A stretch of 15,337 nt of DNA from a virus (lineage: Duplodnaviria; Heunggongvirae; Uroviricota; Caudoviricetes). The notes beneath the pieces were generated by a model. It worked only from the letters and a program-made list of their open reading frames with translations, was not told where the DNA came from and searched no databases. The position numbers and the translations under genes are program-made. The DNA is taken from positions 1-15,337 of IMG/VR virus record IMGVR_UViG_2534681673_000006. One strand, given 5' to 3'. Below, piece after piece: positions 1 to 14,308 of the stretch (position 1 is its first letter; every line of letters starts with the position of its first letter).

Positions 1-165
1 ATGGCAAAGCCGATCATCACGCTCAATGGCCTAAAAATCGTCATTATGTTGGGAATGCTGGTCATTATTCTCTGCGGTATCCGTTTTGCCGCCGAGATCA
101 TCGTGCCGTTTATTCTCGCATTATTTATTGCTGTTATATATAACTTATCCCGCATAGTGCATTGA
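1..165 (+). pseudogene. tqsA: 5' fragment of tqsA/ydgG-like (AI-2 exporter family) inner-membrane protein gene, interrupted after ~codon 46
   Basis: Translation [46 protein letters not shown] matches, from memory, the TqsA/YdgG N-terminus; then diverges into YNLSRIVH plus stop at 163-165. Identity is recalled, not searched. Confidence 0.4.
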
Positions 166-620
166 TTTAATTAAGCAATTTTCACTGAGAAAGTGCCAAA
201 ATTCGCAAAATGACTACACCAGTGACTACACCGTTCGGTGCACTGTATGAAACAACGTGGAACAAATAGGCACAAGAAATATAAAGGCGGGTAATTTTAA
301 GGAGGCGTTGCTGTCGATATGGGGATCCCCATAACGGGGCTACCGGATTTTTTTTCCGGTTAACCTTTAATCAGCCAGGTGGGTTTTACATACCCTTGAT
401 CACCGTAATGATGATCCAGATGTGCACCTTTTCCACCAATGGAGGAAAAGCTCCAACCGTAACGATGATCGCTATGGTTGCCTCGATGGTCTGCGTGGTC
501 ATTATGACCATTCAGCCAGTGACCTTAATCAGAATTTTTCGCTAAAAAATGACGTTGGCCACGTCATCCGGAAAGCACAAAATCACGTCGATTTTTAATG
601 AACGGTTAAACCGTCTTTTT

Positions 621-655
621 GTCACGGTGTGTCACTGGTTGTCACTCTCCGTCAC
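621..655. repeat. Four GTCAC pentamers at exact 10-bp spacing (starts 621, 631, 641, 651); candidate phased protein-binding array
   Basis: Read directly: gtcacggtgt gtcactggtt gtcactctcc gtcacgattg. Preceded by near-palindrome aacggttaaaccgt (601-614). Confidence 0.5.
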
Positions 656-683
656 GATTGAGGTGGTGCTCATTCTGCCCGAC

Positions 684-915
684 CGCGCATTTTTGCGCTA
701 TCGGGAATATAAAACAGTTACCGCGCCGACTTCCTCAAATTGAGGTTTCCGAAAATATCAACTAGTTAACGATAAACTGGCGAGTAATTAAACTACGAAA
801 ATTTCGTAGTTTGTGAATATATTCCGGCCTGCTGGTTAACAGTCCTCAGATGTGAGGGATGTAGCCAGCGCAATTTTGCGTTATCGGGAATATCAAACAG
901 TTACCGCCGTCAGCT
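684..915. repeat. Two ~40-bp direct repeats (about 686-725 and 869-908, ~37/40 identical), each with a small hairpin; GTTACCGCCGT recurs at 952-962
   Basis: gcgcatttttgcgctatcgggaatataaaacagttaccgc versus gcgcaattttgcgttatcgggaatatcaaacagttaccgc. Non-coding region downstream of the packaging operon. Confidence 0.5.
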
Positions 916-952
916 ACCCAGCTCAGAATTGAGCCGCCTTTTAATCAACAAG

Positions 953-1234
953 TTACCGCCGTAACCGCTCCGGCTTCTTCCAGTGATACGTGATTTTCTC
1001 CTTCTCCCGATACAGTTCAACGCGGCGATTGTAGGCCAGCATTTCCAGAACGCGGATCCGTATGTCGCGCATATCCGCATCATTAAGCTGGATACCATCA
1101 CGGCGCATCACCTCAGCAACAACACGCGCATAATTTTCGGCTGTCACGCTGTCCGGCTGCGTGGTCTGTTCGTCAGCCTGCTGGCTGATTCCAGAGACGC
1201 GGCGGATTAATCGCAGTATTTCGGCTTCTGTCAT
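953..1234 (-). CDS. Hypothetical protein, 93 aa, immediately downstream of TerL
   Basis: ATG at 1234 preceded by GAGG-type SD 8 nt upstream; 13 nt after the terL stop. No recognisable domain. Confidence 0.5.
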   Translation of the reverse strand: MTEAEILRLIRRVSGISQQADEQTTQPDSVTAENYARVVAEVMRRDGIQLNDADMRDIRIRVLEMLAYNRRVELYREKEKITYHWKKPERLRR

Positions 1235-3249: not shown

Positions 3250-3538
3250 GCTTATTTTTTCGCCAGATTATTTTTCAAAAAATTCCCGTGCATAAAAATT
3301 TGAGGAGGCGTTCGGTGCCCGGCGGGGTCGGGTTGGTCCTGAAAACGCCCCCCACCCCGTCATACAGCCTCATCAGCGATTGCGGAAACATTCCATAACC
3401 TCGCGGTCACGGTCGGTTAATCGCTTCGCTGTGATGCGTTCTGCGCGTCCTGACGCTTTATCTTTATGCCCTGTTTCCTGTGTCTTCCATGCGTCACGCT
3501 GCCTTATAAGTCCACGGATAAGGCGGTTTTGCTCCCGC
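3250..3538. other. HNH-terS intergenic region; candidate cos site (G-rich quasi-palindrome about 3317-3359)
   Basis: 289-bp non-coding gap at the position where HK97-like cos phages carry cos, between HNH and TerS. Contains gcccggcggggtcgggttgg ... cgccccccaccccg. Positional inference only. Confidence 0.3.
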
Positions 3539-9145: not shown

Positions 9146-9335
9146 CCCACTTTTACCCCCCACTTTTCACAATTCCCCATCTCGTTAAAGGCGTGGGATT
9201 TGTAATTTTTATCATGCTGTTTCATAAGGATTTTTTTGCTCCCCACTTTTTGGGATGTATACAGGTCAAAAAGTGGGGGATTGTGTTTAAATTTTGTTAA
9301 ATTCCCCATACCCACCACTTTTGCCACCCACTTTT
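9146..9335. repeat. Iteron array (CCCACTTTT, at least 6 copies, both orientations); candidate replication origin
   Basis: Copies at 9146, 9159, 9242, 9269 (inverted), 9314 and 9327, including a perfect IR ccccacttttt-17 nt-aaaaagtgggg. AT-rich spacers. Directly downstream of the replication ATPase stop (9335). Confidence 0.55.
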
Positions 9336-10318
9336 TACAGTGGCCCTACATCATCGCCGTCAACATAGATAACGCCGTCTTTTTCCAGCTTGCCCAGCCA
9401 GCGCCGGAAGTGCTTTATTTCGTACCCCAGTTTTTTCATGTCATCACGTAACAGCGGGATCGTGCACTTGTCGCCGTTCTGTGTGCGTGAACGGATACAC
9501 CCCCATAGCGCGGTATGGTTTTCCGTCTTGTTGCCTGCCTCTTCGATGCGCTCCAGTTCAACGGGAGGGCGCGGCTTATCCACCACCACCAGCGACGAGA
9601 TTAACTCCCCGTCAGCGTCGGTAAAAAGCTCCACCACCCGCAAATCATAGGCAGCCTCTTTGAGTTCCTCCGCGTCCTTCATTTTGGTGCATGAGATAAC
9701 CAGCGCTTCGCTTCCTGCGTCCTCCCTGCGTATCCGGTATTCAGCATCCAGCGAAGCACGAAATGCACTGGAACCGCGCGCGCCTTTCGTCTCATCCTTG
9801 CCGGAATGGTGAACCACCAGCACCGTGGCCCCTGTGCGTCGTTTCAGTTCGTCACAACCACGGATAAACGCCCCCATATCACGGGAATCATTTTCATCAT
9901 TCCCACCAAAGCAACGCGCCAGCGTATCCAGAATAATCATGCGTACAGGTTTACCCGTTTCCCGCTCCACCTGACGGGCAGCGATAACCATTTCATCAAC
10001 ATCAAGCGGGGCAGCCGGAAAGATGGGGCGGTTTACCAGATACAGATTTTTCACCTGCTCATCGTGCACAACCTCCCAGGCTTTTACACGACGCGGAACA
10101 CCTATACCGCCTTCACCAACCACATAGAGAACCGCACCATGTGCAACCCTGCGGCCTCCCCACTGGCGACCAGTGGCAACATGGCACGCCCACGATCCGG
10201 CAAGGAATGATTTATAGGACCCGCTAGCCCCGTATATGCTGCATAGCGATACCGCCGGAATAATCCCCTTAACCACGTAATCCAGTTGCGTGTCATATCC
10301 GGTAGATCCAACGCTCAT
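9335..10318 (-). CDS. Replication ATPase, AAA_25 / RepA-like (RecA-fold helicase or loader) with C-terminal winged-helix-like domain
   Basis: 327 aa; Walker A GASGSYKS, Walker B MIILDT, VVHHSGKDETKGARGSSAF motif typical of AAA_25 proteins. ATGA overlap with upstream gene. Confidence 0.75.
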   Translation of the reverse strand: MSVGSTGYDTQLDYVVKGIIPAVSLCSIYGASGSYKSFLAGSWACHVATGRQWGGRRVAHGAVLYVVGEGGIGVPRRVKAWEVVHDEQVKNLYLVNRPIFPAAPLDVDEMVIAARQVERETGKPVRMIILDTLARCFGGNDENDSRDMGAFIRGCDELKRRTGATVLVVHHSGKDETKGARGSSAFRASLDAEYRIRREDAGSEALVISCTKMKDAEELKEAAYDLRVVELFTDADGELISSLVVVDKPRPPVELERIEEAGNKTENHTALWGCIRSRTQNGDKCTIPLLRDDMKKLGYEIKHFRRWLGKLEKDGVIYVDGDDVGPL

Positions 10319-10734
10319 CGGTAGCGTGGTTTTTCGCTGGTGGTTTTTTCTTCCGCCGGCTCTTTCCCGCGCACCCGTTCCAGGTATTCGCGCCAGTTCT
10401 CCCGCATATGGCTGTGCATCCCTTCGGGGTAATAATTCGCATCAGTTACACCCGCCGCCGCCAGCTTGTGCGCAATGGCATTAATATTTGATGGCCTGAT
10501 GTGGCCTGCCTTGTACAGCCGGACACAATAGCGCCCCTCGTCGATGATTCTCAGGTCTGCCAGTTCATCCAGTTGATCATCAGCCAGCACAACGGGAGGC
10601 ACATTATCGCCAGCCAGTCGCCCGTCCTGTTCCTGCCACTGTTTCGCATGTGCCCAGGCATCACTACCCGCAAAAATAATGACTTCGGTCATCTTGTCGT
10701 AAGGCTGTTTTTTTAAGTTCGGTGCGCTTTTCAT
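10315..10734 (-). CDS. Hypothetical protein, 139 aa, translationally coupled to the replication ATPase
   Basis: ATGA overlaps at both ends. No recognisable domain; position suggests a replication accessory role. Confidence 0.5.
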   Translation of the reverse strand: MKSAPNLKKQPYDKMTEVIIFAGSDAWAHAKQWQEQDGRLAGDNVPPVVLADDQLDELADLRIIDEGRYCVRLYKAGHIRPSNINAIAHKLAAAGVTDANYYPEGMHSHMRENWREYLERVRGKEPAEEKTTSEKPRYR

Positions 10735-11030
10735 TTCTTGCCCCTGAATCCGTTAATCATGGTTTTCAGCTTCTGGATGTTTGCCCGTGCCCTGGCGTTG
10801 CTGGTGGGCACGTTATGCGGCGCGGTCTGTACCAGAGAAAAATCACGCCGGAACTGATAAACAGGCATCACGCAATCATATTCGTAACCTTCACGGCGGT
10901 AAGTTACGCACCGTCCCGCCACGCCCTTAATCATTACCGTGCCGCCGTACTGGTCGCGGTAAATATCACCGCGCGTAAATTTAGGGTGAGTGTTGCCACT
11001 GGCAGTTAAGCCAGAATATTTAAGTTTCAT
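10731..11030 (-). CDS. Hypothetical protein, 99 aa
   Basis: GGAGA SD 9 nt upstream of ATG 11030; ATGA-coupled downstream. No recognisable domain. Confidence 0.5.
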   Translation of the reverse strand: MKLKYSGLTASGNTHPKFTRGDIYRDQYGGTVMIKGVAGRCVTYRREGYEYDCVMPVYQFRRDFSLVQTAPHNVPTSNARARANIQKLKTMINGFRGKK

Positions 11031-11035
11031 TATTT

Positions 11036-11269
11036 TTATTCTCCGGTGTGCTGTTCGCTATATCTGTCGTGCAATGTCTCTATTTCTTGTAGTTCCATTA
11101 TTACAGGCTCAAGAAGCGTTATTAATGCCGTGACAATTCTTGATTTTTGTTTGTCGCGTTCATTGTCGCCAAGTGTTTCAAGCCATATGCGCAATATTTC
11201 CAGCATGTTTTCACTGTGAGAAAGTGCAAGAAATACGCGTTCTGTTGTTTCGTGGTAAATATCACGCAT
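11036..11269 (-). CDS. Hypothetical protein, 77 aa
   Basis: GAGGA SD; start overlaps the upstream stop by 8 nt. No recognisable domain. Confidence 0.5.
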   Translation of the reverse strand: MRDIYHETTERVFLALSHSENMLEILRIWLETLGDNERDKQKSRIVTALITLLEPVIMELQEIETLHDRYSEQHTGE

Positions 11270-11495
11270 GGCTTACATCCTCAGGAAATTTTCTTCTGTA
11301 ACGCGCCTCTGCCACATATTCCGCATAATCGGCGGCGATATTCAGTACATCAAGCCCCGTTGATTTATATTCTCTCGTGGAAAGTAAGAAAAAAGCCGCT
11401 CTAATAAGTTCTGGCATTGACGAAAGCGCATCAGCCGCATCATCAGGAACGCCGGAAAATTCTTGTTTCAGGGAATTAAAACGATCATCACGCAT
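11262..11495 (-). CDS. Hypothetical protein, ~77 aa
   Basis: Start taken at ATG 11495 (GGGGGG SD), overlapping the upstream stop by 8 nt. No recognisable domain. Confidence 0.45.
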   Translation of the reverse strand: MRDDRFNSLKQEFSGVPDDAADALSSMPELIRAAFFLLSTREYKSTGLDVLNIAADYAEYVAEARYRRKFPEDVSHA

Positions 11496-11928
11496 AACCC
11501 CCCCCATTTTCACAATCAGCAACAAGAATATTTTTAGCGTCATTCAGCGACCGCGTTGCGGTGTATCGGATACATTCCAGGGCGAATAGTGTGTATTCTT
11601 CCCTTTCTTCCTTTTGTGCAAGCTCTGCTGTGCATTCAATATCAATAAGCGCGTGCATCAGCGTAGTGAGTGCGGCGGCGGCTGCGTCCGGTGTGGTTTT
11701 ATTGCACATGTACCCCTCCGCATTTTTTTCGTTAGAAATAAGCGTTCTTCTTTCCTGTTCATCGATCAGGAATACGCAGACCTCACCGCTAAGGCGTTTA
11801 AGTAAGCCGATGATTGCCCCTGATTCGCTGTCGGTCATCATGCCTGGGTAATCCTCTGCCAGTGCGCAAATAACTTCGATTTGGTGGGCGCGTTCTGCTG
11901 CCTGTTGTAGTGTGATTTCCTGGCTCAT
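11488..11928 (-). CDS. Hypothetical protein, 146 aa
   Basis: GGGGGT SD; ATGA overlap with upstream gene. No recognisable domain. Confidence 0.5.
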   Translation of the reverse strand: MSQEITLQQAAERAHQIEVICALAEDYPGMMTDSESGAIIGLLKRLSGEVCVFLIDEQERRTLISNEKNAEGYMCNKTTPDAAAAALTTLMHALIDIECTAELAQKEEREEYTLFALECIRYTATRSLNDAKNILVADCENGGGYA

Positions 11929-12125
11929 AAGCCTACCCCCTGACGAATACGGGCGGCGAATACCATCACGCAGCCAGCCGGGGATTGCTGGCGTGCGTTC
12001 TGTTCGCTAGTGGCCTCGATGGTAATCACGCGCGGTTGTGCCGTGCTCAGGGCGATAAAACGCCAGGTGAATTTATTCAGGTTGTGCAAGTCCCGCCCTT
12101 GCGGGTGTGTGGTATGATTTCTCAT
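11925..12125 (-). CDS. Small protein, 66 aa, first gene of the leftward early operon; possibly Icd-like (tentative)
   Basis: Start at ATG 12125 with GAGGT SD. HPQGR and FAAR motifs resemble, from memory, P4-type Icd-like proteins. Downstream of the divergent operator region. Confidence 0.4.
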   Translation of the reverse strand: MRNHTTHPQGRDLHNLNKFTWRFIALSTAQPRVITIEATSEQNARQQSPAGCVMVFAARIRQGVGL

Positions 12126-12152
12126 AGCTACCTCGATACTGTTGCTATCGTT

Positions 12153-12197
12153 GGTGGTTAGACGCCCTGCATGTGTTGCGAGCACTGCGGGGCGTTG
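12153..12197. repeat. Conserved ~45-bp stem-loop element, copy A; copy B at 12943-12992
   Basis: ggttagacgccc(t/c)g(c/t)atgtgtt...cactgcggggcgttg; about 85% identical. Both copies can form a 10-bp stem with one mismatch; loops differ. Confidence 0.5.
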
Positions 12198-12223
12198 CTT
12201 AATTTGAGTGACAAAACTCAAAC

Positions 12224-12279
12224 TGTGCGCACAGATTAAAATCATATGTGCGCACAGATTAAAATCATATGTGCGCACA
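12224..12279. promoter_or_regulatory. Operator array: three copies of perfect palindrome TGTGCGCACA in 23-bp tandem repeats, in the divergent promoter region
   Basis: Palindromes at 12224-12233, 12247-12256, 12270-12279; repeat unit tgtgcgcacagattaaaatcata. A partial half-site tgtgcgcc sits at 12317-12324 near a candidate TTAACA-17-TATTGT promoter for the RHH gene. Confidence 0.55.
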
Positions 12280-12353
12280 TGTCAATACTTAACATCTCAT
12301 TTTTTTTGCTGTATTGTGTGCGCCCATAAAGTCCATTTAAGTGAGGTGCATCA

Positions 12354-12551
12354 ATGTCTAGCGGTAACACAAACAACAAATCAGCAAAGAAAAATATTCG
12401 ATTCCCACATGAGCTTATAGATGGGATTGATGCCAGCGTTGAACAAGAAAAATTAACTAATCCTAGTGCTAATTTTTCCGCATGGGTCTTAGATGCCTGT
12501 GGACGCAAATTAAAATATGAACAGCGCCGGAAGGCCAAAGAATCAGAATAA
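12354..12551 (+). CDS. Ribbon-helix-helix (CopG/Arc-like) DNA-binding protein, cassette 1
   Basis: 65 aa; GAGGTG SD 5 nt upstream. KNIRFPHELIDGIDASVEQEK...SANFSAWVLDACGRKL fits an RHH strand-helix-helix. Paralogous to the 13113-13292 protein. Confidence 0.65.
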   Translation: MSSGNTNNKSAKKNIRFPHELIDGIDASVEQEKLTNPSANFSAWVLDACGRKLKYEQRRKAKESE

Positions 12552-12600
12552 TCACTATCAGCGCCGTGGTGTGAGGTACTACGGCGCATTGCTTTACAGG
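12527..12600 (+). repeat. ~74-bp near-identical junction element (second copy 13268-13341) spanning the RHH gene 3' end and a hairpin
   Basis: aaggccaaagaatcagaataat(c/t)actatcagcgccgtgg(t/c)gtgaggtactacggcgcattgctttacagg. Stem gcgccgtgg/ctacggcgc with a GAGG-containing loop. Confidence 0.55.
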
Positions 12601-12608
12601 GCAGTAAC

Positions 12609-12836
12609 ATGACCAACAACACACTATCACCAATACAAGACACGCAAACGCAAGATGATGAAATCATCCGGCAAAGGCAGTCAGAAGCCTGCGCCAGACT
12701 TGAGGAAGAACTAACCAGAACAAAAATACCACCACCAGCGCCGCGCTTAGTTCCACCAGAAAAATTTGCCCTTGAAGATTTTGTCGATAAATACCCACGG
12801 CGGCTTAAATCCGGCAAAAACCGACCGCCAGGATGA
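12609..12836 (+). CDS. Small partner protein, cassette 1, 75 aa, unknown function
   Basis: Starts MTN; C-terminal motif FALEDFVDKYPRR is shared with the cassette-2 partner (FVLDEFLKKYSR). Proline-rich middle. No known domain. Confidence 0.5.
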   Translation: MTNNTLSPIQDTQTQDDEIIRQRQSEACARLEEELTRTKIPPPAPRLVPPEKFALEDFVDKYPRRLKSGKNRPPG

Positions 12837-12999
12837 GTGCACAAAACCGAACTATGAAACGGATTATTCCGTTTCCGGGGCGTTTGTGTGTGTATAAAGA
12901 GTAAGCTATGCTCTTTTATAGCCATAATCGTTACCTCAATTAATGGTTTGGTTAGACGCCCCGTATGTGTTCCCATCACTGCGGGGCGTTGTTGTTTTG

Positions 13000-13092
13000 G
13001 GTGTATTTCACCTTTATTTTTAAATCTACATTCAGGTGAAATACACCGCAAGACTTTTTTTATCTTTTTTTTTGCGTATACTGAAATACACC
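13000..13092. promoter_or_regulatory. Operator/promoter of cassette 2: perfect 13-bp inverted repeat ggtgtatttcacc / ggtgaaatacacc plus a third half-site overlapping a TATACT -10
   Basis: Arms at 13000-13012 and 13035-13047 (22-bp spacer); tgaaatacacc at 13082-13092 directly after TATACT (13077-13082). AGGAG SD follows. Confidence 0.55.
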
Positions 13093-13112
13093 GATTATCA
13101 GGAGAACCAGAA

Positions 13113-13292
13113 ATGGCAACAGGTGCAAAGAACGCAAAATCACAAATGACAACGGTCAGAATCCCGCATGAGGTAATGACCGATATTGAGCAACTTAAAG
13201 AACCTGGCGAAAGTACCGCCGGATTTCTAGTTACGGCAGCAAAAGGCGAGATCAAACGCCGCCAGCGCCGCAAGGCCAAAGAATCAGAATAA
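13113..13292 (+). CDS. Ribbon-helix-helix DNA-binding protein, cassette 2
   Basis: 59 aa from ATG 13113 (AGGAG SD). TTVRIPHEVMTDIEQLK...TAGFLVTAAKGEIKRRQ is paralogous to cassette 1 with divergent DNA. Shared C-terminus RRKAKESE. Confidence 0.65.
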   Translation: MATGAKNAKSQMTTVRIPHEVMTDIEQLKEPGESTAGFLVTAAKGEIKRRQRRKAKESE

Positions 13293-13349
13293 TTACTATC
13301 AGCGCCGTGGCGTGAGGTACTACGGCGCATTGCTTTACAGGTACACACA

Positions 13350-13553
13350 ATGACCAATAAAGAATCAACCAATACACCATCGCAAAAAACGAACAGAGAG
13401 CACGAAAATATGGCGCTCGAGCATGAATCAGAAAGATTCGCTCCATGCGCTTTTGTCCTTGATGAGTTTCTAAAAAAATATTCACGTTCTGAACGGATGA
13501 AAATGGCAGCACAATACGGCCCCAACAAGCAAGGTAATTGCCCACCAGCCTGA
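13350..13553 (+). CDS. Small partner protein, cassette 2, 67 aa, unknown function
   Basis: Starts MTN; same position relative to the junction hairpin as the 12609 gene; shares the F.L(E/D)(D/E)F..KY.R motif. Confidence 0.5.
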   Translation: MTNKESTNTPSQKTNREHENMALEHESERFAPCAFVLDEFLKKYSRSERMKMAAQYGPNKQGNCPPA

Positions 13554-13621
13554 TCACGGTTATCATGTTCGGGCTTATGATTGTTGACACATACGGCGCA
13601 GCGGGTTAATTGTTCAGAAAG

Positions 13622-13649
13622 GCGGTTCCATATCGGGACCGCTTTTTTT
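13622..13649 (+). terminator. Rho-independent terminator of the plus-strand RHH operon
   Basis: Stem gcggttcc/gggaccgc (8 bp, one G.U), loop atatc, followed by TTTTTTT. Confidence 0.6.
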
Positions 13650-13765
13650 ATGCCTGAAAATACCCTATAGCATGGCTTTTCAGATTCACCAGGGCGAACG
13701 AATCCCCGCCCCTGTACGGGCGTATATTTCATCATGGTTATACCTCAGTATTATGGCGTTTATTC

Positions 13766-13789
13766 CCGATACCGAGATCCCGGTATCGG
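13766..13789. promoter_or_regulatory. Perfect 9-bp inverted repeat ccgataccg-agatcc-cggtatcgg downstream of alpA
   Basis: Read from sequence. No U-tract on either strand, so more likely a protein site or an mRNA 3' stabiliser than a terminator. Confidence 0.35.
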
Positions 13790-13829
13790 TCAATAATGGA
13801 TTGGTGGTGGCTGTGTGCCGCCAGTCTTT

Positions 13830-14018: not shown

Positions 14019-14179
14019 TATTGCCCCCTTTCGTTTCTTAAAGAGTTATTTCGTGTTCTATTGCGTTGGGATGTGTCTGATTGTGTCAGGATGATTCAGA
14101 GTTGGCAAATGTTGGTGTCGCATGGTTTACAGAAAGAGGAATAATCAGGATAAAATCATTTAAATTCATGTTAATACAA

Positions 14180-14209
14180 AGGCATAAAATCTTGTTTTAT
14201 GCCTTTTTT
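14180..14209. terminator. Rho-independent terminator between int and alpA, possibly bidirectional
   Basis: Stem ggcataaaa/ttttatgcc (9 bp perfect), loop tcttg. TTTTTT follows on the plus strand; the interrupted run UUUGUAUU follows on the minus strand. Confidence 0.55.
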
Positions 14210-14308
14210 CGCACGCTTTAACGCGTAATTCACTAATGTATAAAAAACCAGCTGAGCATTAAAAATCAGTAACTTACAAATCTGTATTCTTTTTGGCCTC
14301 TTGTTCGT

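Follow-up and report, generated by a model that had tools for sequence, protein, structure and literature searches.

The window, by which we mean the whole 15,337-nucleotide stretch analysed here, has the gene content of a phage satellite, namely a capsid-forming PICI integrated into tqsA, and its non-coding tail carries four copies of a YGTCAC unit at an exact period of 10 bp. This array is very probably a phased protein-binding site, now or until recently, as its layout indicates. It recurs in related satellites, sits intact in different sequence contexts and is independent of the modules of the satellite itself, so that the comparison of tails designates it as an autonomous cis-module that is shuffled horizontally among the PICI tails of E. 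coli. That a protein binds it, which protein this would be and what would follow from binding are points that we infer from these patterns. We tentatively propose that the array is an orphan site of the iteron type, to which a protein supplied in trans would bind, possibly the initiator of a lambdoid prophage; it could just as well be a functionless relic of a phage origin, which is the main rival of this proposal.

Anatomy of the array and of the satellite tail

The GTCAC copies lie on the + strand at 621-625, 631-635, 641-645 and 651-655, at the exact 10-bp intervals that an earlier note on this DNA had described, and read tGTCACggtg tGTCACtggt tGTCACtctc cGTCACgatt. They are preceded by T, T, T and C, so that the repeat unit is YGTCAC. 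GTCAC as such is not enriched in the window (25 copies vs 23.8 expected). Four copies in exact 10-bp register are expected by chance about 4e-8 times per window, and none of 200 shuffled windows contained a four-copy phased cluster. No second phased array was found in the window, even at one mismatch per unit. The cores of the four or five units, depending on the element, are identical although their spacers (ggtgt, tggtt, tctcc, ggtat) are unrelated, and a simple tandem duplication (VNTR) was discarded on this ground. The array thus contains at least three direct repeats whose conserved core recurs in phase with the helix, and this combination of identical 5-6-bp cores, unrelated spacers and one-turn spacing fits a phased protein site. 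The idea of such a site, which the earlier note had put forward, therefore holds, and the array may be read by an architectural or other trans-acting protein; the more specific binders that it had named, Int, the excisionase and TerS, are contradicted by the relatives. The recurrence of GTCACGGT that it had reported in a candidate cos region is also present, at 3406-3413 rather than 3405-3412, and has no particular meaning since an 8-mer is expected about 0.5 times per 15 kb on both strands.

Table 1. Position of the array and of the features that surround it in the window
Position	Strand	Feature	Basis or reading
129-137		att core TGCTGTTAT, left satellite junction within tqsA
211-232	+	tandem TGACTACACC x2 then GTTCG	likely Int arm-type sites and TorI-like RDF core
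602-620	+	hairpin ACGGT-TAA-ACCGT (602-614) followed by CTTTTT, terminator-like	terminator scan, folding
620-655	+	YGTCAC array, four units, exact 10-bp period	sequence, chance estimate
656-952		mosaic DNA of about 300 bp, parting the array from its ancestral neighbour gene
953-1234	-	93-aa gene (phrog_1561), last gene after TerL

The first 144 nucleotides of the window are the 5' end of tqsA, and the remainder is an element of about 15 kb, the first 10 kb of which are 99.5% identical to an element of E. coli O43 RM10042. All its long genes are on the minus strand. They include genes for PerC, SSB and a RepA-type helicase, for an HK97-type capsid, protease and portal, then for connectors, HNH, a P27-family TerS and TerL, followed by the 93-aa gene, and the AlpA and tyrosine integrase genes are at the far end. 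Such a gene set is that of a capsid-forming PICI (10.1101/2022.09.08.507074). Several peculiarities were observed elsewhere in the element. The RepA-family helicase (9335-10734, minus strand) is divided into two overlapping ORFs of 327 and 139 aa for one 470-aa gene in RM10042, which is a frameshift or sequencing error. The region 10372-13793 diverges from RM10042 as a mosaic with 88-98% identity in pieces, and the 497-aa ORF at 12242-13735 may be spurious, given its odd composition and its lack of a Pfam match. The alpA-int intergenic region (14161-14242, minus strand) has a weak Rfam match to the Brucella sRNA BSnc120 (27 bits vs a gathering value of 114, E = 0.011), probably by chance.

The gene-free tail spans about 790-800 bp between the 93-aa gene and the att core, and it houses the array. 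The latter starts about 485-490 bp inside the att core, in agreement with the ~480 bp of the earlier note, and lies downstream of the packaging operon, the stop codon of the last minus-strand gene being 297 bp away. The near-palindrome reported 5' of the array is real and there are even two of them, at 549-567 and 602-614. The former is an inverted repeat, ATGACGT-N5-ACGTCAT, that is kept (~93%) in an 'alpha' flank module (530-656) shared with E. coli 042 and may be an operator; the alpha module is also found without the array (L163, L173, L203). On the other side, the inserted mosaic contains a 40-nt direct repeat (copies at 685-724 and 868-907), a linker of about 20 bp (ATCAAnnAGTTACCGCC) and IHF-consensus matches at 756-768, 891-903 and 943-955. 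This insert is missing from L002, L003 and L004, where the array adjoins the 93-aa gene.

The linker is a recurrent feature of these tails. Copies of the form ATCA(A/G)CnnGTTACCGC(C/G) part the tail cassettes in the window (656-960) as well as in L206 (3240-3640) and L124 (18660-18800), and seven of them are found in about 400 bp of the O157 cf-PICI tail. The linker also takes in the end of the 93-aa gene (its last codons and stop codon), and the three exact IHF-consensus matches of the window (756, 891 and 943, all on the + strand) all fall within it. These linkers could be IHF sites or recombination linkers. The inserted mosaic also holds a perfect 11-bp inverted repeat, AAACTACGAAA-A-TTTCGTAGTTT (790-812), of which the O157 tail carries a related copy (aaactgcgaaaatttcgca). 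Finally, a 41-aa hydrophobic ORF (386-511, minus strand) lies opposite the only promoter-like site of the tail (385-412, + strand). It is probably not a gene, since it is unconserved in strain 042, and the two may form an antisense RNA pair. To our knowledge, the non-coding tails of E. coli PICIs (400-900 bp from the last gene to att) have not been dissected before. They appear here as cassette-like mosaics with at least one discrete, portable and phased putative binding array.

Distribution and portability of the array among relatives

We compared 61 related satellites whose tail could be read. Of these, 28 carry the array and 33 do not; the latter include EcCICFT073, which has been studied experimentally, and the O157 cf-PICI. 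It was found in 281 of the 5426 complete E. coli genomes (~5%), always in unannotated chromosomal DNA, and it is confined to E. coli/Shigella elements. In E. coli 042, E700025 and E423, the array has five units (tGTCACtgtg tGTCACtggt tGTCACtctc cGTCACggta tGTCAC), the fifth being GTCGC in 042, and starts 9-19 nt past the stop codon of the 93-aa gene. From these relatives, the adjoining position is the ancestral arrangement, and the window has lost its fifth unit at a recombination breakpoint right after 655-656. The distance from that stop codon to the array takes values of 9, 19, 66, 91, 117, 252, 273, 300 and 404 nt among the elements, 300 being that of the window, and the array stays intact across at least seven right-hand and two left-hand contexts. 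The sole flank that accompanies it in every context, through eight alleles, is ACCGTCTTTTT (610-620), the 3' half of the hairpin; the left flank that always travels with it reads ACCGTCTTTT(T), that is, this hairpin half and the T-tract. The three variable sites of the first four units are all in spacers, and one allele is shorter by exactly one 10-bp unit, so that the register is kept.

The same observations bear on the main rival, according to which recombination captured a piece of a phage origin (or of some other phage site), which has no present function in the satellite. We hold this to be doubtful. It would agree with tails that are patchworks of short modules bounded by a repeated linker, with the absence of the array from more elements than carry it, EcCICFT073 and the O157 cf-PICI being among those that lack it, and with a fifth unit that common alleles have lost or carry in mutated form (GTCGC). 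The perfect cores themselves could be plain inheritance, as the alleles are near-identical; indeed, conservation says little when all of them are at least 90% alike. Yet substitutions weakly avoid the cores (3 of 15 spacer vs 0 of 20 core positions, p about 0.07), the module has remained intact through all the contexts listed above, and no similarity of the tail or of the array to the deposited phage and plasmid records searched was found, the array being absent from these collections. If the array is a relic, it would record a traffic between phage origins and satellites.

Satellite and host factors as candidate binders

The earlier note had proposed that the array is an arm-type site for Int, an excisionase (AlpA) array or a TerS recognition array. 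These options are largely refuted by the comparison of relatives, and we regard them as highly improbable. The ends of the element have other candidates for the first two functions. Indeed, the TGACTACACC pair and the G(T/A)TCG motif that follows it (211-237) lie 70-100 bp inside the left core, and the pair recurs with this motif, in the same orientation, near the right core (at about 130-150 bp), where it immediately precedes the int start codon; L001 has it at 31361-31390. The conserved part of this arm repeat across elements is ACTACACC, and the adjacent G(T/A)TCG is the same as the cores of the KplE1 TorI excisionase, GTTCG/GATCG/GTCCG (PMC2951348). The TGACTACACC pairs are thus likely to serve Int as arm-type sites, and the TorI-like RDF cores next to them would overlap the promoter region of int, like those of KplE1.

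Some traits of the array do recall such sites. Adjacent direct repeats that contain GTCAC are found in the arm-type sites of lambda and in the attP of HK106, both Int proteins compared have an arm-binding domain, and the element encodes an AlpA-family protein. Moreover, the sites of RDFs are as a rule direct repeats that follow each other at one turn of the helix (PMC7498355), and the 10-bp period of the array is of this kind, with 5-bp cores in the case of TorI (PMC2951348). However, the E423 element, inserted at tRNA-Pro, carries an identical five-unit array with the same spacers next to an integrase that is only 26% identical, a divergent AlpA and arm repeats that read GTAGCTA at both ends instead of ACTACACC (L204 10848-10922). 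The array is about 485 bp from the att core, outside the 50-200 bp expected of arm sites and hence outside the att arms, and in the relatives it is separated from the arm repeats by a variable stretch of about 300 to 620 bp, which is hard to square with the geometry of an intasome. About half of the elements that have the arm repeats of the window lack the array, as do elements of the same family (the AlpA genes of which were outside the comparison). No promoter-like site accompanies it. Int and RDF sites covary with their proteins and the array does not, which argues that it is neither an Int nor an AlpA site, and this comparison sets it apart from the true sites of recombination, which lie at the two ends of the element. 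The array unit GGTGT-GTCAC also resembles the arm repeat GGTGTAGTCAC. This lead was abandoned, as the resemblance is in a non-critical part, the conserved part of the arm repeat elsewhere being ACTACACC and not GTGAC.

The distribution of the array is just as indifferent to packaging and replication. Satellites with their own HK97-type terminase and capsid, or with a lambda-type capsid and no terminase, were crossed with RepA helicase or P4-like primase replicons, and all four combinations occur both with and without the array, so that it would be neither a TerS site nor the satellite's own origin. In particular, some satellites without terminase genes carry the array, half of the satellites that share the TerS of the window lack it, and about 2.2 kb separate it from terS. 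The HK97 TerS, which belongs to the same Pfam family as that of the window and is the member whose structure has been studied, binds a single 15-bp site next to cos (PMC11331095). The published cos1 and cos2 sequences and primers of EcCICFT073 place these sites upstream of the 93-aa gene, and they contain no GTCAC array. Concerning cos sites, no lambda-type cosN was found above chance in the window. In EcCICFT073, lambda-type cosN at L124 17559 (+) and 18309 (-) face each other across a 144-aa gene (17660-18094), and cos2 is immediately upstream of the homologue of the 93-aa gene. The gene-content associations with the array (RepA-type replicon, p = 0.009; a 101-aa gene, p = 0.007; both before correction for about 45 tests and for shared ancestry) were rejected since all combinations exist. 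On this distribution, Int, AlpA, TerS and the satellite's own Rep or origin are excluded as users of the array, and its binder would have to act in trans.

The 93-aa gene deserves separate consideration, as it is the only satellite gene present in every array-bearing element. The array would then be a cis site of its product, for packaging or transfer, and its ancestral position just past the stop codon of this gene is in keeping with the habit of many DNA-binding proteins to bind beside their own gene. A hypothetical gene of the packaging module of EcCIEDL933, '1792', is needed for full transfer (10.1101/2022.09.08.507074) and might be the 93-aa gene. We consider this reading improbable, because identical 93-aa proteins occur with and without the array (window vs L132). 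In addition, the structure model of the protein is a plain assembly of three helices of moderate confidence (pLDDT 69.6), which gave no fold match at E below 0.8, hence none to a DNA-binding fold, and its sequence has no match in Pfam or PDB. Its identification as Rpp was dropped for want of any PDB sequence match. The protein has about 965 homologues, which are all close E. coli sequences without a name, and a scan of GTDB species with it returned one locus only, in Shigella.

The binder could also be provided by the host, as a response regulator or a similar winged-helix factor. Proteins of the OmpR/PhoB family bind tandem head-to-tail repeats, the PhoB core reads TGTCA, and CreB reads TTCAC. 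PhoB would be the nearest example, since three to four units of the array read TGTCAC, which includes its core, in tandem head-to-tail arrangement, and since the array is confined to elements of E. coli and Shigella. The Pho box, however, is made of 7-bp CTGTCAT repeats with 4-bp A/T-rich spacers and a period of 11 bp, whereas the array has a 10-bp period and G/C-rich spacers, so it was rejected as a Pho box. No promoter-like -10 is found at the right distance on either strand. The array was likewise rejected as a promoter: TTGTCA matches the -35 consensus at 5 of 6 positions, but there is no -10 at 16-18 bp. A host regulator is thus, in our opinion, a very improbable binder.

Nor do we give much credit to an action at the RNA level, which we would place among the least probable readings. 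In this case, GUGAC x5 in the 3' UTR of the late operon would act through protein binding or mRNA stability. This would suit beta-type elements, where the array is located between the stop codon and a bidirectional intrinsic terminator; in L003 (E700025), the hairpin is indeed a bidirectional A-tract/U-tract terminator. In the window, on the contrary, the hairpin beside the array terminates transcripts of the + strand and not those of the minus strand according to the terminator scan, and neither the window nor L003 folds better than shuffled sequences (z about -1). An Rfam scan of the whole window gave no match in the tail, and an exact 10-nt period is characteristic of duplex DNA.

Phage initiator iterons and other known systems

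We scanned viral contigs for GTCAC-N5 x4 and obtained 119 loci. Seventy of these arrays are inside clustered initiator ORFs and 21 more are in similar unclustered ORFs of 200-390 aa, so that about 91 of 119 (about three quarters) are inside initiator-type ORFs. These ORFs match replication-initiation PHROGs (phrog_1408, phrog_3729) and a DnaT domain, they are followed by a lambda-P-like (PF06992) or DnaB-like gene, and A-rich repeats lie 3' of the array. From this context, the viral arrays would be origin iterons, as in lambda O/ori. An E. coli prophage family carries 6 + 4 GTCAC units in its initiator gene and is found in 632 of 5426 genomes. DnaT-domain initiators are the only family that our scans tied by context to such arrays (GTSAC cores, 10-bp period, 4-6 units). 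As they are the only class with matching arrays, they lead to the reading of the satellite array as orphan iterons. Another sort of repeat was seen in nine viral contigs (L006, L017, L038, L040, L074, L095, L099, L117 and L120), which carry 4-7 tandem TGTCACCGTT/TGTCACTGAA decamers in variable copy number. These start 3 nt past the stop codon of a 511-aa ORF, and a putative portal gene follows them at a distance of about 45 nt or more; the location of this ORF just upstream of the putative portal suggests that it encodes a large terminase.

In the orphan-iteron reading, the module would combine the terminator half-site ACCGTCTTTTT with four or five YGTCAC sites, so spaced that each turn of the helix has one. 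It would act as a phased docking platform, with a small DNA-binding domain on each core and all of them on about one face of the helix, where they would polymerise head to tail along the array. The binder would be encoded out of linkage with the array and supplied in trans. Once a prophage of this type is induced, its DnaT-domain initiator would load on the satellite tail, which would have one of two effects, namely to bring replication functions to the satellite or to sequester the initiator. The more precise claim that the orphan iterons capture the initiator of one lambdoid helper class, so that the satellite is replicated or the initiator titrated, seems to us unlikely. Were it true, this capture would constitute a cis-acting and gene-free plug into the replication of the helper, shuffled as a module of about 65 bp. 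More generally, if a helper protein reads the array, the satellite would interface with its helper without any gene for this purpose, and the array would mark helper specificity.

The helper and co-occurrence data do not support this proposal. HK106, the one experimentally known cf-PICI helper, has no GTSAC cluster, which is neutral since the prototype O157-type island also lacks the array. Nine of the 25 closest relatives of the window were among the 60 top genomes with an iteron-type initiator; the array and initiator loci are about 57-61 kb apart in several such genomes, a sign of common descent. In spread samples, 5 of 60 array-bearing genomes were among the listed initiator-positive ones vs 3 of 60 in a general PICI sample (60 genomes, whose array status was not checked). 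There is thus no array-specific association, the 9 of 25 are a lineage effect, and co-occurrence with GTCAC-iteron prophages was rejected as evidence for a helper.

The likeness between lambdoid iterons and the satellite array resides in the GTSAC core, the pyrimidine that usually precedes it, the 10-bp (occasionally 11-bp) period, the number of units (4-6) and the unrelated spacers. Proteins that are unrelated can, however, have a core of only 5 bp in common. They differ in their surroundings. Phage iterons are inside their own initiator gene and are followed by A-rich repeats, whereas the satellite array is non-coding, with no initiator gene nearby and no A-rich block. Searches by tblastn and profile HMM found no homologue of the initiator in the window, L001 or EcCICFT073. 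The only A/T-rich DNA beside the array is the T5-6 tract of the terminator hairpin, with no AGATAAAG-type block, and this short tract is on the opposite side of the array relative to the orientation of the repeats. The presence of the array does not track the type of replicon, RepA or primase, of the satellite.

Other systems share part of this layout. The arm sites of the lambda integrase (P'1-P'3, consensus CAGTCACTAT) resemble the array by their GTCAC core and their adjacent direct repeats, whereas the arm repeats of the satellites are based on ACTACACC or GTAGCTA, unlike those of lambda, and the array does not covary with Int. The MatP site matS, a 13-bp palindrome (GTGACRNYGTCAC), has a 5-bp half-site in common with the array, and tqsA lies in the terminus region of the chromosome. 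The array was nevertheless rejected as matS, as its units are all in one orientation with 5-bp spacers and form no 13-bp palindrome. RDF arrays are similar in having 5-bp cores, three to seven direct repeats spaced by one turn and a small winged-helix binder of the AlpA/Xis kind (PMC2951348, PMC7498355). Those of TorI (attL of KplE1) and Apl (phage 186), however, are within att or the promoter that they regulate, and they match their own RDF. The satellite array is 300-620 bp outside the arm sites and is common to elements with divergent AlpA proteins. Finally, the Cox boxes of P2 at the late promoter of P4 are a case in which the protein of a helper phage binds phased direct repeats on a satellite. 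What we propose here is of the same nature, namely a satellite with a one-turn-spaced array that would be read by a protein supplied in trans, with the difference that the Cox boxes sit at a promoter and at att, whereas the satellite array has no evident promoter.
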